Positions 2-5,308 of a stretch of 27,048 nucleotides of DNA are shown here, piece after piece; within the stretch, counting starts at the first letter, position 1; each line of letters begins with the position of its first letter. The stretch covers positions 1 to 27,048 of the forward strand of contig JACTMV010000308.1 of NCBI GenBank assembly GCA_014584455.1. The letters are read 5' to 3'. The DNA comes from Pseudomonadota bacterium. Its GTDB lineage: Bacteria > Myxococcota_A > Polyangia > Haliangiales > Haliangiaceae. A program made the translations under genes and the position numbers. A model generated the notes under the pieces. That model ran no database searches. It saw only the letters and a list, made by a program, of their open reading frames with translations, and was not told the origin of the DNA.

Positions 2-673
2 ACCGCCAGCATGGCGCTCGACGACGCCGGCAAGCTCGCCGGCCTGACCTTCGTGCCCCGGCCGCCGCTGCCGCCCGATCCCCACGCCGACCGCCCGCTG
101 CGCGCGCGCCTGCGCCTGCCCTTCGACGGTCAGTGGTTCGTGTTCTGGGGCGGACCCAGCGCCACGGTCAACTACCACGTGGTCGCCCCCGACCAGCGTC
201 ACGCCTACGACCTCGTGATCTGGAAGGACGGCGGCACCCACACCGGCGACGGCACCCGCAACGAGCAGTATCACTGCTGGGGCCAGCCGGTGCTGGCGCC
301 GGCCGCCGGCACGGTCGTCGCCGTCGAGAACGGCCTGCCCGACAACCCGCCGGGCAAGATGGACGCGAGCGCCAAGGCCGGCAACCACGTCGTGCTCGAT
401 CTCGGCGACGGGGCCCACGCGCTCCTCGCCCACCTGCAACAGGGTTCGGTCGCGGTGCGGCTCGGCGATCGGGTCACCGCCGGCCAGCGGCTCGGCCTCA
501 CCGGCAACAGCGGCAACACCAGCGAGCCCCACCTGCACCTCCACCTCCAGGACGGCCCCACCCTGTTCCGCGGCGCCGGCCTGCCGGTGTGGTTCGACGA
601 CGCCTGCGTCGACGGTCAGCCGCCGGCGCGGGTCGCCCCGGTGCACGGCCAGTTCGTCGAGCACTGCCGCTGA
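2..673 (+). CDS. M23-family (LytM-like) zinc metallopeptidase, probably 5'-truncated by the window edge
   Basis: The translation contains the M23 signature motifs HAYD (HxxxD) and GNSGNTSEPHLHLHLQ (GxSGxS...HxH). The frame is open from position 2 with no stop before the first ATG at 11. No signal peptide is visible, so the N-terminus probably lies upstream of the window. Stop TGA at 671-673. Confidence 0.75.
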   Translation, partial: TASMALDDAGKLAGLTFVPRPPLPPDPHADRPLRARLRLPFDGQWFVFWGGPSATVNYHVVAPDQRHAYDLVIWKDGGTHTGDGTRNEQYHCWGQPVLAPAAGTVVAVENGLPDNPPGKMDASAKAGNHVVLDLGDGAHALLAHLQQGSVAVRLGDRVTAGQRLGLTGNSGNTSEPHLHLHLQDGPTLFRGAGLPVWFDDACVDGQPPARVAPVHGQFVEHCR

Positions 674-690
674 CGCCCGCCGCGGCGCAG

Positions 691-713
691 AGCGTGTGAA
701 GGAATCACACGCT
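691..713. terminator. Perfect hairpin AGCGTGTGA-aggaa-TCACACGCT between convergent gene ends; candidate bidirectional terminator
   Basis: A 9-bp perfect inverted repeat with a 5-nt loop sits ~20 bp after the M23 stop and within the 227-bp gap before the 3' end of the minus-strand gene at 901. There is no U-tract, which is common in high-GC genomes. Confidence 0.3.
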
Positions 714-900
714 CGGGTCGATCGGTCGGTCCCGGCGAGGACGCCGGCGCCGACCTGAGTCGGAGCCGATCGCCTCGGCTGCGCCTCGGCGCAGAGCCTG
801 TCATCGAATCGATGCCAGGCTCTCTCTCGATCGATCGACCTCGCCCGCTGACGGGCTCGTCCGATCTCCTCCGGACCAGCGCCGCACCGCTGCGCTCGGC

Positions 901-1911
901 TCAGGCGGCGCGCTCGTCCAGGTGCCGCCGCACCAGCCGCGCGCACCACGCGATCGCGCCGGTCGCCAGCAGCAAGCAGACGACGAACAGCGGCAGGCCC
1001 TGGGCGCCGTCGAGCGTCGCCCGCCACTCGATGGCGTGGGCGCGATCGACCTCGCGCAGCGCCGCCACCGCGAGGAACAGCGCGACCGCGCCGACGGTGG
1101 CCAGCCGTCGCCCCGCCCGCCCGCGCCCGCCGGCGAGCGCGATCATCCCGGCCGCGGTCACCGCCGCGCCGCTCCCCGCCAGCACCAGCCACGGCGTGGC
1201 CATCGCCGGCAGCTCGCCGGCGCGCCCGCCGACCGTCCCCACCGCCGCCGCCGCCGCCACCGCCAGGCCGGTCAGCCCGAGCCCGCCCAGGCGGCGCAGC
1301 TCGGCGCGTCCCGCCCGCGCCCCGGCCAGCCACGCCGCGCCGGTCGCGAACGCCACCGCCGCCAGCCCCAGCCACAGCGCCAGGCGGACGGCGATCACCG
1401 GGTCGCGGTGGAACACGCGCCCGTCGCGGTAGTGCGCGACCCAGGTCTCGGCGCCGGCCGCGGCCAGGGTGTGCTCCTCGATCCACGACCACGCGACGAA
1501 GAGGAACGCGAGCAGGGCGGCGCCGCTCACCAGCCCCCGCCGCGCCCCCGACCACGCCCGCGCCCGCACGCTCTTGCCCAGGTACAGCAGGTAGAAGCCG
1601 GCGATGAGCGCCGGCACGATCGCCATGAACCGGTGCGACATGAGGAGCGTCGCCGTGTACACGCGGTGCTGGTAGAGGACCTGGATCAGCAGCAGCGGCG
1701 CCACCCCGGCGGTGATCGCCGCGCCGAGTGCGAACGGCAGCCAGTCGCGGGCCGCCGCCGCCACCGGGTCGTCGCCGCCGACGAGCGCCCGCGCCGTCGC
1801 CCACGCCGCCGCGCCCAGCACGAAGCCGACGAGCAGCGCGTGGGCGGCGAAGGTGACCACGAGCAGGAGCACGTAGCCCCCCGGGCCACCGAGCTCGGCG
1901 AACAGGCTCAT
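901..1911 (-). CDS. Polytopic membrane protein (336 aa), candidate partner or subunit II of the upstream CydA-like protein
   Basis: This is the in-frame C-terminal part of the artefactual 1379-aa ORF, starting at ATG 1909-1911 (MSLFAELGG...). It is very hydrophobic with several predicted TM helices. Its ATG overlaps the TGA of the upstream gene (ATGA, 1908-1911), which implies translational coupling. No CydB motif was recognised, so the subunit II call is only a hypothesis. Confidence 0.55.
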   Translation of the reverse strand: MSLFAELGGPGGYVLLLVVTFAAHALLVGFVLGAAAWATARALVGGDDPVAAAARDWLPFALGAAITAGVAPLLLIQVLYQHRVYTATLLMSHRFMAIVPALIAGFYLLYLGKSVRARAWSGARRGLVSGAALLAFLFVAWSWIEEHTLAAAGAETWVAHYRDGRVFHRDPVIAVRLALWLGLAAVAFATGAAWLAGARAGRAELRRLGGLGLTGLAVAAAAAVGTVGGRAGELPAMATPWLVLAGSGAAVTAAGMIALAGGRGRAGRRLATVGAVALFLAVAALREVDRAHAIEWRATLDGAQGLPLFVVCLLLATGAIAWCARLVRRHLDERAA

Positions 1912-3383
1912 CGCGCACCCCCGCGCCCGCCACCCGTGGCCTCGCCCGGCGGCCGCGGCCGCTCCGGCGCCGGCGCGGTGCCGGCCTCGTCGAGCCAGCG
2001 CCCGATCTGCGCCAGCGCCACCGGGTCGTCGGACACCGGCCAGGCGGCCGGCGCGCCCGCCGCCTCCCAGCGGATGAGCTGGGCCACCGCCTCGACCTCG
2101 GTCGCCGGCCCGGCGAACGGCGGCATGAAGCCCTTGGTCTCCTGCAGGCGCGCGATCGCGATGCGGAGCTGCTCGAGCGACCAGGCGCCGCCGAGGTGGA
2201 CCAGGCCGTTGGCGCCCTTCATCGTGTGGCAGGCCGCGCACTGCAGCCGCACCACGCGCGCGCCGAGGGCGAGCTGCGCCGTCGGGTAGCGCGCGGCGTC
2301 GCGCAGCGGGTACGGGTCCCGCGCCACCGAGCCCTCGGCGCGCAGCCGCGCGACCTCGGCCGGCGCGATGGCGTTGGAGTACAGGACCTGGCGGATCGTG
2401 AACGGCTTGCGCGCGCCCTCGCGCACGAACTCGCCGGCGGCGGTGGCGCCGAACGCCAGCGCCAGCAGGAGCGCCGCGGTCGCGCCGCTCACGTACAGGC
2501 GCCGCCACCAGATCCCGACGAGCGCGTAGGCGCCGATCAGCAGCGACGCCCCGGCGGCCAGGGCCAGGAACATCGACATCGCGACGCTGCCCCCGGTCAG
2601 CCACGCCCGGCTGTCGGCGGGGATCACCGCCACGTACCACAGCCCCAGCGCCGGCATCGCCGCCATCGGCACCAGCAGGCGCGCGGCGCGGGCGAGGAGG
2701 GCGTGGCGCGCGGCGCGGTCCAGGTCCATCGTGTTGATGACGGCGATCGCGGCCAGCGCCCCCAGCGTGCTCGACACCGCGACCCGGTAGAGCAGCGACG
2801 GCCAGAAGCTGGGGTTGAAGAAGCCGGCCCACACGTCGCCGGAGGCCAGCCACGCCCCCGGGGTGAGCTGCCACGACAGGATGCCGTTGATCCAGAACAG
2901 GCTGCCGAACGACGCCAGCGCGTAGGTGGCGAGCAGGCGCAGGCGCACGCCGTCGGGCAGGCGCTCGCCGTAGCGCAGGAACATGTAGCCGGCGACGATC
3001 TCGACCGCGAAGCAGCACCACTCGATCGCCCAGATCCAGTGGAACTCGTCGACCATGAGCCCGATCGTGCGCGGCCCGACCTGGATCGTCGTCAACCACA
3101 TCGCCACGCCGGTCAGGGCGCCGGTGACGAAGCTGACCAGCACCAGGTACTTGAAGAAGCTGTCGAGGAAGCGGCGCGCGTCGGGCACGCCGCGCCCGGC
3201 CAGCCACTGGAAGTACGTCATCAGGAACCCGCCGCCGATCGCGAACTGGGCGAGGAAGACGTGGAGGATGCCGACCGCGCCGATGACCATGCCGCGCATC
3301 GCCGGACCGAAGTCGTTGACCGGGTAGGCGGTCGGCTCCATCCCCGCTGGGATGATGCCACCGCCGGCGCCGGCATGCGTCAT
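1908..3383 (-). CDS. Cytochrome bd subunit I (CydA)-like membrane protein with a fused C-terminal mono-haem cytochrome c domain
   Basis: The N-terminal ~330 aa is polytopic and has blocks resembling CydA (HVFLAQFAIGGG...; FVTGALTGVAMWLTT; WAIEWCCFAVEI compared with E. coli CydA LAIEGLMAFFLE). The C-terminal ~150 aa is soluble and carries a CAACH haem-binding motif (RLQCAACHTMKG). Stop TGA on the minus strand at 1908-1910. Confidence 0.65.
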   Translation of the reverse strand: MTHAGAGGGIIPAGMEPTAYPVNDFGPAMRGMVIGAVGILHVFLAQFAIGGGFLMTYFQWLAGRGVPDARRFLDSFFKYLVLVSFVTGALTGVAMWLTTIQVGPRTIGLMVDEFHWIWAIEWCCFAVEIVAGYMFLRYGERLPDGVRLRLLATYALASFGSLFWINGILSWQLTPGAWLASGDVWAGFFNPSFWPSLLYRVAVSSTLGALAAIAVINTMDLDRAARHALLARAARLLVPMAAMPALGLWYVAVIPADSRAWLTGGSVAMSMFLALAAGASLLIGAYALVGIWWRRLYVSGATAALLLALAFGATAAGEFVREGARKPFTIRQVLYSNAIAPAEVARLRAEGSVARDPYPLRDAARYPTAQLALGARVVRLQCAACHTMKGANGLVHLGGAWSLEQLRIAIARLQETKGFMPPFAGPATEVEAVAQLIRWEAAGAPAAWPVSDDPVALAQIGRWLDEAGTAPAPERPRPPGEATGGGRGGAR

Positions 3384-3428
3384 CGCGTCGCGGCGATCCG
3401 CCGGCCGCGTGGCTCGCCCCGCCTTCGC

Positions 3429-4973
3429 TCAGGGCGCGAGGCGGGCGACGAAGGCGTCGGGCCTGGCCAGCTTGGCGCCCTCGGCCTGGACCGCGGTCGG
3501 CCCGCCGGGGACGAGATCGAGCGTGAAGCGGTAGGCGCCCGAGACGTAGGGCGTGCCGTCGCGGCCGATGGCCACCGCCAGCCCGACGTCCTGATCCTTG
3601 GCCCCCCAGCGCCGGCTCCACGCGTGGTTGCCGGCGGCGTCGAGCTTGAGGAAGAAGCCGTCCATGTAGCCGGCGGTCTTGAACGGGCCACCGCCGAGGT
3701 CGATCGTGGTCTCGAAGCCGCCCACGACCACCAGGTTGCCGGCGGCGTCGGTGGCGACGCCGAGCCCGACGTCGGCGCGCTCGCCGCCGTAGGTCTTGAC
3801 CCACAGGAGCTTGCCCTCGGGCGACAGCCGGGCCACGAACACGTCGGACTCGCCCTTCGACAGCACCGGCGTCCCCAGCACGTCGAGGTCCTTGTCGAAC
3901 GAGCCGGTGATCACGACGTGGCCGGCGGGGTCGACGGCGAGCCCGCCCGCCCGCTCCTGGAACGGGTTGCCGAGGCGCACGCTCCACACGTGGTTGCCCA
4001 CCGCATCGAAGCGGGCCACGAACAGGTCGTCGTCGCCGGCGCTCTTGTGGGTGGTGCCGCCGAGCGTGATCGTGCCCTTGAAGCGGCCGAGGGCGTAGAT
4101 GTTGCCGGCGGGGTCGACGGCGACGTGGCTCACCTCGTCGGGGTACTCGCCGCCGAGCTGGGTCACCCACTCGACCTCGCCGCCGGCCCCGAGCTTGACC
4201 AGCGCCGCGTCGTCGCCGCCGCGCGAGGTCACGGTGGTCGCGCCCAGCGCCACCTCCTGGCCGAACGACACGGCGACGATCCAGCCGCCGTCGCCGGCGG
4301 CGGCGATGGCGGTGGCGGCGTCGGAGGCCGGGCCGCCGGCGGTCCACAGCCACTGCACCTCGCCGGCGGGGTCGAGGCCGACCACGAACAGGTCGTCGGA
4401 GCCGGTCGCCTTGCCGCTCAACCCGCCGGCGGTGACCGTGGCCGAGAAGAGCCCGGTGGCGGCGACGTTGCCCTTGTCGTCGACCGCGACCGCGTCGCCC
4501 CGCTCCTCGTGCTTGCCGCCGATCGTCGTCACCCAGGTCACCGCGCCGCTGGCGTCGAGGCGGGCGACGAAGGCGTCGCTCTTGCCGGCCGCGGTGCGCG
4601 CGCCGGCGCCGGCGAAGGTCGCGGCCTCCTCGAAGTCGCCCACCGCGTAGACCGCGCCGTCGCCGCCGACCGCGAGCCGCCGCACGATGTCGACCCGGGT
4701 GCCGCCGAGGCTCGTGACCCAGGCCACCGCGCCGGTGGCGCCCGGCGGCGACTCGGCCAGCGGGGGCAGCGGACGCGGCGGCGGCGCCACCCGCGGCTCG
4801 GCCGGCGCCGCGCTGCCGGAGGCGCTGCCGGACCCGCTGCCGGCGCCGTCGCGCTCGACCTTGCCGGCCCCGGCCTTGCCGGCCGGCTCCTTCTTGCCGC
4901 AGGCGACGAGGGGAACGGCCAGGGTCAGCGCGACCGGGCCGACGAGGGCGAGCGAGACGAGGCGTGTGCGCAT
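3429..4973 (-). CDS. Lipoprotein with SBBP-type beta-propeller repeats
   Basis: Signal peptide with lipobox (LAVPLVAC-G). At least 8 repeats of the form D.FV.KLD..G...W...GG... (DAFVARLDASGAVTWVTTIGG, DLFVVGLDPAGEVQWLWTAGG, DAALVKLGAGGEVEWVTQLGG, and others) are typical of the SBBP repeat (PF06739). A GAGGAA Shine-Dalgarno sits 4 nt upstream of ATG 4971-4973 on the minus strand. Confidence 0.8.
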   Translation of the reverse strand: MRTRLVSLALVGPVALTLAVPLVACGKKEPAGKAGAGKVERDGAGSGSGSASGSAAPAEPRVAPPPRPLPPLAESPPGATGAVAWVTSLGGTRVDIVRRLAVGGDGAVYAVGDFEEAATFAGAGARTAAGKSDAFVARLDASGAVTWVTTIGGKHEERGDAVAVDDKGNVAATGLFSATVTAGGLSGKATGSDDLFVVGLDPAGEVQWLWTAGGPASDAATAIAAAGDGGWIVAVSFGQEVALGATTVTSRGGDDAALVKLGAGGEVEWVTQLGGEYPDEVSHVAVDPAGNIYALGRFKGTITLGGTTHKSAGDDDLFVARFDAVGNHVWSVRLGNPFQERAGGLAVDPAGHVVITGSFDKDLDVLGTPVLSKGESDVFVARLSPEGKLLWVKTYGGERADVGLGVATDAAGNLVVVGGFETTIDLGGGPFKTAGYMDGFFLKLDAAGNHAWSRRWGAKDQDVGLAVAIGRDGTPYVSGAYRFTLDLVPGGPTAVQAEGAKLARPDAFVARLAP

Positions 4974-5101
4974 GGTTCCTCTGGGGACACCGCGAGAGCC
5001 CTGACGTTGTCATGGCATCGCCTCCCAGGGCAACGCGCACTTCGAGGGAACCGCCGCGGCGCCGCGTTGTCCAACTCGCCGCGGCAGGCTATCTCTCCCT
5101 C

Positions 5102-5308
5102 ATGCGCGTGGTCGGAGATGACGACGGCGTCGCGGCGCTCAAGGCGCTGGCCGCCGACAACCGTGACTACCTCAAGTTCCTGATCACCGAGGCGCAGTCC
5201 AACAGCGACCACACCGCCTCCTTCCGCGCCGCCGACGACACCCGCTGGGTGGTCCGCTTCCACCCGGAGTCGGGCGAGCTCGAGGTGCGACGCGCCCCCG
5301 CGCCGTGA
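5102..5308 (+). CDS. Small hypothetical protein (68 aa), possibly co-translated with the downstream gene
   Basis: An ATG at 5102 lies inside the reported ORF 4964..5308. GC3 is very high, consistent with coding. The stop TGA 5306-5308 overlaps the GTG at 5305 that opens the next ORF. There is no recognisable domain and no clear RBS. Confidence 0.35.
   Translation: MRVVGDDDGVAALKALAADNRDYLKFLITEAQSNSDHTASFRAADDTRWVVRFHPESGELEVRRAPAP

Follow-up and report, generated by a model that had tools for sequence, protein, structure and literature searches.

An overlapping gene pair for a CydA-cytochrome c fusion and a CydA-type partner in a Haliangiaceae contig: a probable OR-C1 member of the cytochrome bd superfamily

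This work concerns two overlapping genes on the reverse strand of contig JACTMV010000308.1 (GenBank assembly GCA_014584455.1), from a bacterium that GTDB places in the Haliangiaceae (Myxococcota_A). The window, by which we mean the whole stretch of 27,048 nucleotides analysed, carries a gene for a membrane protein that resembles CydA of the cytochrome bd oxidases and ends in a c-type cytochrome domain (subunit I), followed by a gene for a second membrane protein (subunit II). To judge from family membership and architecture, the pair very probably encodes an OR-C1a/OR-C1b heterodimer of the bd superfamily as classified by Murali, Gennis and Hemp (2021; bioRxiv 10.1101/2021.01.16.426971, also ISME J). 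An earlier note, made from the letters of this DNA alone, had proposed a CydA-like protein fused to a c-type cytochrome and coupled in translation to its neighbour. The features of the pair are given below; residues of subunit I are numbered from the longest open reading frame (ORF), and TM denotes a transmembrane helix.

1908..3383 (-), subunit I (OR-C1a type), CydA-like core of 8 TM with C-terminal cytochrome c; longest ORF, 491 aa
3339..3341 (-), probable true start, Met15 of the 491-aa ORF (homologue alignment and NCBI record)
2403..3308 (-), membrane core of subunit I, residues 26-327, 8 TM helices (AlphaFold2 (AF2) helices and hidden Markov model (HMM) alignment)
3261..3263 (-), His41 of subunit I
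3021..3023 (-), Glu121 of subunit I
3000..3002 (-), Glu128 of subunit I
2784..2789 (-), Tyr199-Arg200 of subunit I, the Tyr occupying the H186 position
2418..2420 (-), Glu322 in the RExxRKP motif of subunit I
1983..2285 (-), predicted periplasmic class I cytochrome c domain, residues 367-467 (Pfam, profile matches, topology)
2226..2240 (-), CAACH, residues 382-386, the sole CxxCH of subunit I
2124..2126 (-), axial Met420 (FMPPF) of subunit I
1908..1911 (-), stop/start overlap ATGA, subunit I TGA with subunit II ATG (sequence read directly)
901..1911 (-), subunit II (OR-C1b type), 336 aa, 9 TM, no CxxCH (ORF list)
1840..1842 (-), His24 of subunit II
1051..1053 and 1042..1044 (-), Glu287 and Arg290 of subunit II

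The fused gene and its partner

The GC content of the window is about 75 %, and that of the frame at 1908..3383 (-) is 70, 55 and 98 % at codon positions 1, 2 and 3, a profile that marks it as a real gene. Its product matches two Pfam families above their cut-offs (26.2 and 27 bits, respectively): Cyt_bd_oxida_I (PF01654) with 47.5 bits over residues 38-246, covering profile positions 10-224 of 418, and Cytochrome_CBB3 (PF13442) with 27.6 bits over residues 370-435, around the CAACH site. The CydA-like membrane blocks and the soluble, CAACH-bearing C-terminal domain read in the earlier note were thus both recovered. The 491-aa length given there is probably an overestimate: since homologues start at Met15 (MEPTAYPVNDF...) and NCBI holds a 477-aa protein (MBE7453508.1) in the same 90 %-identity cluster, subunit I probably has 477 aa, and the longest ORF is 14 codons too long (3339..3383 (-)). 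Contig CAADGB010000349.1, assigned to 'uncultured delta proteobacterium PRO4', matches the gene region with 100 % identity, and the nearest named relatives are Kofleriaceae and Myxococcales metagenome-assembled genomes (MAGs).

More than 1,300 proteins match subunit I. The best 120 are 64-100 % identical to it, and nearly all of them share the PF01654 plus PF13442 architecture. Against a library of 50 %-identity clusters, the matching clusters number 785 at E<=1e-3, falling to 447 at E<=1e-10 and to 139 at E<=1e-30. Full-length homologues carry 1, 2, 3, 8 or up to 11 CxxCH motifs, the first of which lies in nearly all cases at about residue 350-400, right behind the membrane core. Because the same architecture recurs across homologues and clusters, we regard the fusion of CydA and cytochrome c as genuine, and not as a product of chance or assembly.

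The stop codon of subunit I overlaps the ATG of the 336-aa membrane protein, as the earlier note had observed. No Pfam or NCBIfam family matches subunit II, and Pfam scans of 45 of its homologues gave no CydA or CydB family even at E<=10. A profile search with subunit II retrieved 770 proteins, the best 120 of which are all unnamed or 'hypothetical' and carry no Pfam domain; their names thus give no tie to published OR-C1b entries.

The very high GC content also gives rise to spurious long ORFs. One example is a 1379-aa 'ORF' at 901..5040 (-), which runs into subunit II only after crossing three real genes in a different frame; ORF lists made mechanically for this DNA therefore need filtering by codon-position GC.

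Conserved residues, fold and topology

The homology of the membrane core to CydA was established with an alignment of 50 diverse subunit I homologues (A3; 23-60 % identity to the query), on which the profile and all conservation counts for subunit I are based. Searches of solved structures with the single sequence or with a profile of close homologues returned cytochrome c6 only; CydA surfaced only with the A3 profile, which matched Geobacillus CydA (5DOQ_A, E 2.4e-17), the M. smegmatis chain 9r2g_A (E 3.5e-10) and E. coli bd-II and bd-I, with 7ose_A and 6rko_A among the entries matched. In the HMM alignment to 5DOQ_A, His41 falls on Geobacillus H21 (E. coli H19), Glu121 on E101 (E. coli E99) and Glu128 on E108 (E. 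coli E107), the seven-residue spacing of the two glutamates being that of Geobacillus. Glu322, in FVREGARKPF, falls on the Glu of LAEVGRQPW (E. coli E445), and Arg325 on the Arg three residues past E445 in the conserved GRQPW motif. These positions are nearly invariant in A3: H41 is kept in 49/50 sequences, E121 in 47/50, E128 in 48/50 and R200 in 49/50, and around the TM8 motif E318, R321 and R325 are each found in 49/50, E322 in 48/50 and P327 in all 50/50.

The earlier note had named the CydA haem ligands and the Q-loop as the features to compare, and the comparison came out divided. The equivalents of H19, E99, E107 and E445 are kept. The H186 position is occupied by Tyr199 and is a variable hydrophobic residue across A3; no conserved Met equivalent to M393 was found at the start of TM7 in that alignment, where M269 is present in 10/50; and the TM6-TM7 loop has only 16 residues, so that the Q-loop is absent. 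On this alignment evidence, subunit I retains the bd active-site set but has neither the Q-loop nor the two ligands of haem b558, H186 and M393. The AF2 model places the helices of the core at residues 26-63, 77-99, 104-141, 144-173, 193-216, 223-253, 267-293 and 300-325, and a Foldseek search with it gave bd oxidase subunits as all of the top 18 matches, CydA chains making up 8 of the first 9.

A separate observation concerns three other positions of the core. Members of the Myxococcota/Planctomycetota clade, including the protein in the window, carry Gln46, His115 and Gln172 (3246..3248, 3039..3041 and 2868..2870), whereas most OR-C1a homologues have His46 (36/50), Val or Phe at 115 (40/50) and Met172 (44/50). 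The difference is a clade-specific swap of side chains of potential relevance to haems or protons. A third haem site formed by His46 and Met172 was considered and set aside, as these residues are far apart in membrane depth and the changes at them do not covary cleanly.

In the C-terminal domain, C382, C385, H386 and M420 are invariant (50/50 in A3). Profile matches of the domain comprise cytochrome c6 (down to 1e-6), CcoP/QcrC (1e-7 to 1e-10) and c551, and FMPPF aligns on the 'MPaF' motif that carries the Met ligand of class I cytochromes. The AF2 helices (369-382, 403-416, 427-441 and 454-467) describe an all-alpha fold. From these sequence features the fused domain is a class I c-type cytochrome with a single haem, attached about 40 residues past the ligand motif of TM8. 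A CydA-type N-out orientation combined with eight helices puts the C-terminus, and with it the cytochrome, on the periplasmic side. The predicted N-out/C-out topology agrees with the distribution of Lys and Arg in the short loops of subunit I (9 cytoplasmic against 2 periplasmic), and answers in the affirmative the question of sidedness raised by the earlier note. Attachment of haem c occurs in the periplasm.

Whether the downstream protein is a CydB or a CydA' had likewise been left as a question in that note, and profile comparison points to the latter. A family profile of subunit II (A1; 30-67 % identity to the protein in the window) was aligned to A3 by hhalign with 91.5 % probability and E 8.6e-7 over 275 columns, with TM1-TM8 of both proteins in register; the score of 58.5 compares with 11-19 for reversed and column-shuffled controls. 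Against a low-diversity alignment of subunit I (A2; Neff 1.8), the probability was 9.5 %. In the alignment to A3, His24 of subunit II falls on His41, and Arg286-Glu287-x-x-Arg290 on Arg321-Glu322-x-x-Arg325; His24 is kept in 44/45 homologues and Glu287-x-x-Arg290 in 45/45. A further near-invariant residue, His147, lies at the periplasmic end of TM4. Val stands at the Glu121 position and Gly or Phe at that of Glu128, the proton-channel glutamates thus being lost. By fold, subunit II matches CydB and CydA about equally well. We conclude from the profile alignment that subunit II is a diverged CydA paralogue with a bd fold, that is, a CydA'-type partner.

Relation to known systems and gene neighbourhood

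Murali et al. divide the bd superfamily into qOR, OR-C and OR-N, a classification taken up by later papers. Subunit I of OR-C typically has 8 TM and a periplasmic C-terminal extension with haem c. The adjacent paralogue is named OR-C1b, and such 'b'-type subunits are generally devoid of E99 and E107. According to the supplementary tables of the same study, OR-C occurs in 41 phyla, Myxococcota and Planctomycetota among them (Table S3), and OR-C1a proteins have 0 to 8 haem c sites, 1 being commonest, with many OR-C1b entries having 0 (Table S7); many OR-C1b entries are labelled 'hypothetical protein'. In keeping with this picture, phmmer links subunit I (E 1e-40 to 1e-60) to proteins with 2, 3 and 8 haems that resemble the forms tabulated for Desulfovibrionia.

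The gene pair shares with OR-C1 a subunit I of 8 TM with the equivalents of H19, E99 and E107, no Q-loop, H186 or M393, a C-terminal periplasmic CxxCH, and an adjacent paralogous subunit devoid of the two glutamates. As all the structural defining features tested are present, the pair very probably belongs to OR-C1. Three differences were noted: E445 is marked absent ('-') in the Desulfovibrio OR-C1a reference of Table S6, whereas the near-invariant RExxRKP motif of the present family contains Glu322; subunit II has 9 predicted TM, against the 8 stated by Murali et al.; and the clade to which the window belongs has Gln46, His115 and Gln172 in place of the His, Val/Phe and Met of most members. 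The variant bd-family enzyme foreseen in the earlier note is therefore recognisable, and its architecture is one already published as OR-C in 2021; the locus is a further member and not a new system.

Three other systems invite comparison. CydAB(X) oxidases (qOR1-3; E. coli 6RKO/6RX4, Geobacillus 5DOQ) share the fold of both subunits, a two-subunit operon with subunit I first, and H19, E99, E107 and E445 with the Arg three residues on, all of which are retained here. They differ in that the present pair has no haem b558 site and no Q-loop, a cytochrome c domain replaces TM9 of subunit I, and subunit II is a CydA paralogue with His and ExxR and not a recognisable CydB; no CydX-like gene was found, there being no small hydrophobic ORF of that kind downstream of the pair in the window. 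Archaeal CydAA' (qOR4a/qOR4b) is likewise a heterodimer of two CydA paralogues, the second of which keeps the H19 equivalent and has lost the proton-channel glutamates (Table S6 of Murali et al.). In contrast to the present pair, CydAA' oxidises quinol through a b558/Q-site in subunit I, has no haem c and is confined to Archaea. The cbb3-type cytochrome c oxidase (CcoNOP) is a functional analogue only: there too, periplasmic class I cytochrome c domains feed a membrane oxidase, and the domain fused to subunit I matches the CcoP-type family PF13442, but the catalytic subunit of CcoNOP is an unrelated haem-copper protein, whereas the present pair lacks a copper site and is not expected to pump protons.

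With two family-specific peptide motifs we retrieved 455 relatives among GTDB species representatives and analysed the best 80 loci, which were found through A2 and are therefore biased to relatives of >=60 % identity. They belong to Myxococcota (Kofleriaceae, Haliangiales and cultured Polyangium species) and Planctomycetota (Planctomycetaceae, Pirellulaceae and Phycisphaerae), with single MAGs of Eiseniibacteriota and Tectomicrobia. Cultured carriers of the pair include Polyangium fumosum DSM 14668 (locus L072) and Polyangium jinanense (L052), and also Chitinophaga pinensis (Cpin_6091/6090). Wherever the downstream DNA suffices (69 loci and, in addition, locus L039), subunit I has a subunit II homologue behind it in the same orientation. 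The junctions of the 69 loci include 22 with a 4-nt overlap, 23 with a 1-nt overlap and 6 with a 2-nt gap. The two-subunit complex argued for in the earlier note is thus matched by a gene pair that is conserved in related genomes of Myxococcota and Planctomycetota, as a rule with translational coupling. Across the loci no other unit is conserved: any other gene stands beside the pair in at most 21 of the 80 loci, and a third conserved gene or a donor cytochrome was looked for and not found beyond the pair.

In the closest Kofleriaceae/Haliangiales relatives, a convergent ahpD-ahpC pair lies directly behind the two genes, together with a divergent LysR-family regulator of OxyR type with a GHCLRDQ motif; ahpD encodes a CMD-family protein and ahpC an AhpC/TSA peroxiredoxin. 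The regulator is found beside the pair in 21/80 loci and AhpC/AhpD in 11-12/80. A VanX-like D-Ala-D-Ala dipeptidase is encoded upstream in 19 loci, where the window has its lipoprotein gene. The immediate neighbours in the window, a lipoprotein and a peptidase, are not conserved beside the pair. A scan of 600..5300 for promoters and terminators gave nothing usable. The neighbouring genes, and examples of the ahpCD-oxyR arrangement, are:

3429..4973 (-), SBBP beta-propeller lipoprotein (LipL53-like), ending 45 nt upstream of the longest subunit I ORF
11..673 (+), M23 peptidase, convergent with subunit II, at the place where relatives have ahpD-ahpC/OxyR
L005 5866..7974, ahpCD-oxyR in a related locus
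L013 8400..10614, the same
L041 8342..10415, the same
L020 8779..10863, the same

Farther along, the window encodes an 845-aa homologue of the Major Vault Protein of eukaryotes (9000..11537 (+); Pfam MVP_shoulder 89 bits, Vault_3 33 bits). The same strand carries, some 1.1 kb farther downstream, a gene (12633..15092 (+)) whose 819-aa product combines VIT, VWA and proprotein-convertase P domains. VIT and vWA also occur in vPARP, a partner of the eukaryotic vault.

Possible chemistry, alternatives and significance

Cytochrome c was proposed as the electron donor of OR-C by Murali et al.; the mechanism we favour for the pair is the following. Subunit I keeps the four-helix bundle and the TM8 motif, which would hold two active-site haemes as in bd oxidases; the quinol-oxidising module has been lost, with TM9 replaced by a mono-haem cytochrome c; and subunit II is an ancient duplicate of the same core that would take the role of CydB. 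A periplasmic c-type cytochrome or another periplasmic donor would reduce the fused haem c, whose electrons would pass to the di-haem site just below it, at the periplasmic end of TM1 and TM8, and O2 would be reduced there to water, the cytoplasm supplying the protons along the Glu121/Glu128 path. Because cytoplasmic protons would be used, the reaction would be electrogenic without pumping, the charge separation contributing to the membrane potential. The net result would be a copper-free cytochrome c oxidase on a bd scaffold. Taken whole, an OR-C1 heterodimer including O2 reduction fed by cytochrome c, this explanation is somewhat favoured; for the chemistry from cytochrome c to O2, drawn by analogy, we put the chances at about even. 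As to the donor, the earlier note had allowed for cytochrome c instead of, or in addition to, quinol: the missing b558 ligands and Q-loop fit the former and argue against the latter.

Several points weigh against this explanation. A literature search found no purification, assay or structure of any OR-C enzyme; that O2 is reduced, and which way the electrons run, is therefore assumed by analogy with the bd enzymes that oxidise quinol. The AF2 model of subunit I is moderately confident (pLDDT 78.7) and cofactor-free. The window contains no cytochrome c, haem-maturation or other respiratory gene by which the donor might be identified. The ahpD-ahpC and OxyR neighbourhood gives the explanation weak support; these genes are convergent or divergent with the pair and not co-transcribed with it, occur in one lineage only and are absent from the window. 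Finally, a literature search on published OR-C1a members gave one relevant proteomic observation: SMUL_0150, a distant OR-C1a protein of Sulfurospirillum multivorans, is about 40-fold up in cells adapted to pyruvate fermentation (PMC6242987), which is not what a simple aerobic respiratory oxidase predicts.

That rise, and the OxyR-type regulator and AhpC and AhpD beside some of the pairs, would also suit an enzyme of the same architecture for which O2 is not the physiological substrate, namely a peroxidase or detoxifier fed by cytochrome c (acting on H2O2, NO or similar) or an electron sink under anoxic or micro-oxic conditions. Canonical bd oxidases have been reported to show catalase- and peroxidase-like side activities. 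We consider such a role unlikely: the equivalents of E99/E107 and H19/E445, which serve the O2-reducing site of bd oxidases, show the highest conservation in the family, the peroxiredoxin genes neighbour the pair in one lineage only and are not co-oriented with it, and scavenging of O2 by strict anaerobes would account for expression in nominally anoxic growth as well. A reversed flow is less likely still; the complex would then be a quinol:cytochrome c (or periplasmic acceptor) oxidoreductase, oxidising quinol within subunit II or where the subunits meet and using haem c as the exit. Database names such as 'cytochrome ubiquinol oxidase subunit I' and the PF01654 match would point to a canonical quinol-oxidising CydAB that merely has an extra cytochrome c domain, but the match spans only about the first half of the profile, there is no Q-loop and no equivalent of H186 or M393, subunit II matches no Pfam CydB family, and no CydX-like ORF accompanies the pair. 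The features tested in the sequence contradict this reading, whose probability is very small.

A different departure from an oxidase fed by cytochrome c concerns the partner. Because subunit II keeps both active-site ligand equivalents and His147 and has lost the proton-channel glutamates, it might bind one or more haems of its own instead of being an inert, CydB-like scaffold. OR-C1 would then be a pseudo-symmetric multi-haem complex; in view of such a subunit II and of the fermentative rise of SMUL_0150, its real job would perhaps be transmembrane or periplasmic electron transfer and not O2 respiration. On the motifs at hand we hold this improbable; if true, the complex would be unlike any solved bd oxidase. 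That OR-C1 departs from the simple picture of a bd oxidase fed by cytochrome c is thus a real if unlikely possibility, because OR-C activity is unmeasured in the literature found and the partner subunit keeps haem-ligand motifs.

The locus leaves the general picture of OR-C unchanged. It adds to that picture the retention of an E445-type ligand motif in subunit I and a Pfam-dark partner that, by profile alignment, is a true CydA paralogue retaining ligand motifs. OR-C is recorded in 41 phyla, yet the literature search found no enzymological or structural study of it, and for biochemistry the locus suggests Polyangium spp. (about 60 % identity), cultured aerobic myxobacteria, as tractable sources. 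If OR-C1 complexes are indeed copper-free cytochrome c oxidases on a bd scaffold, they would add a class of terminal oxidase, and metabolic reconstructions would be mislabelling such pairs as 'ubiquinol oxidase subunit I' and 'hypothetical protein'.

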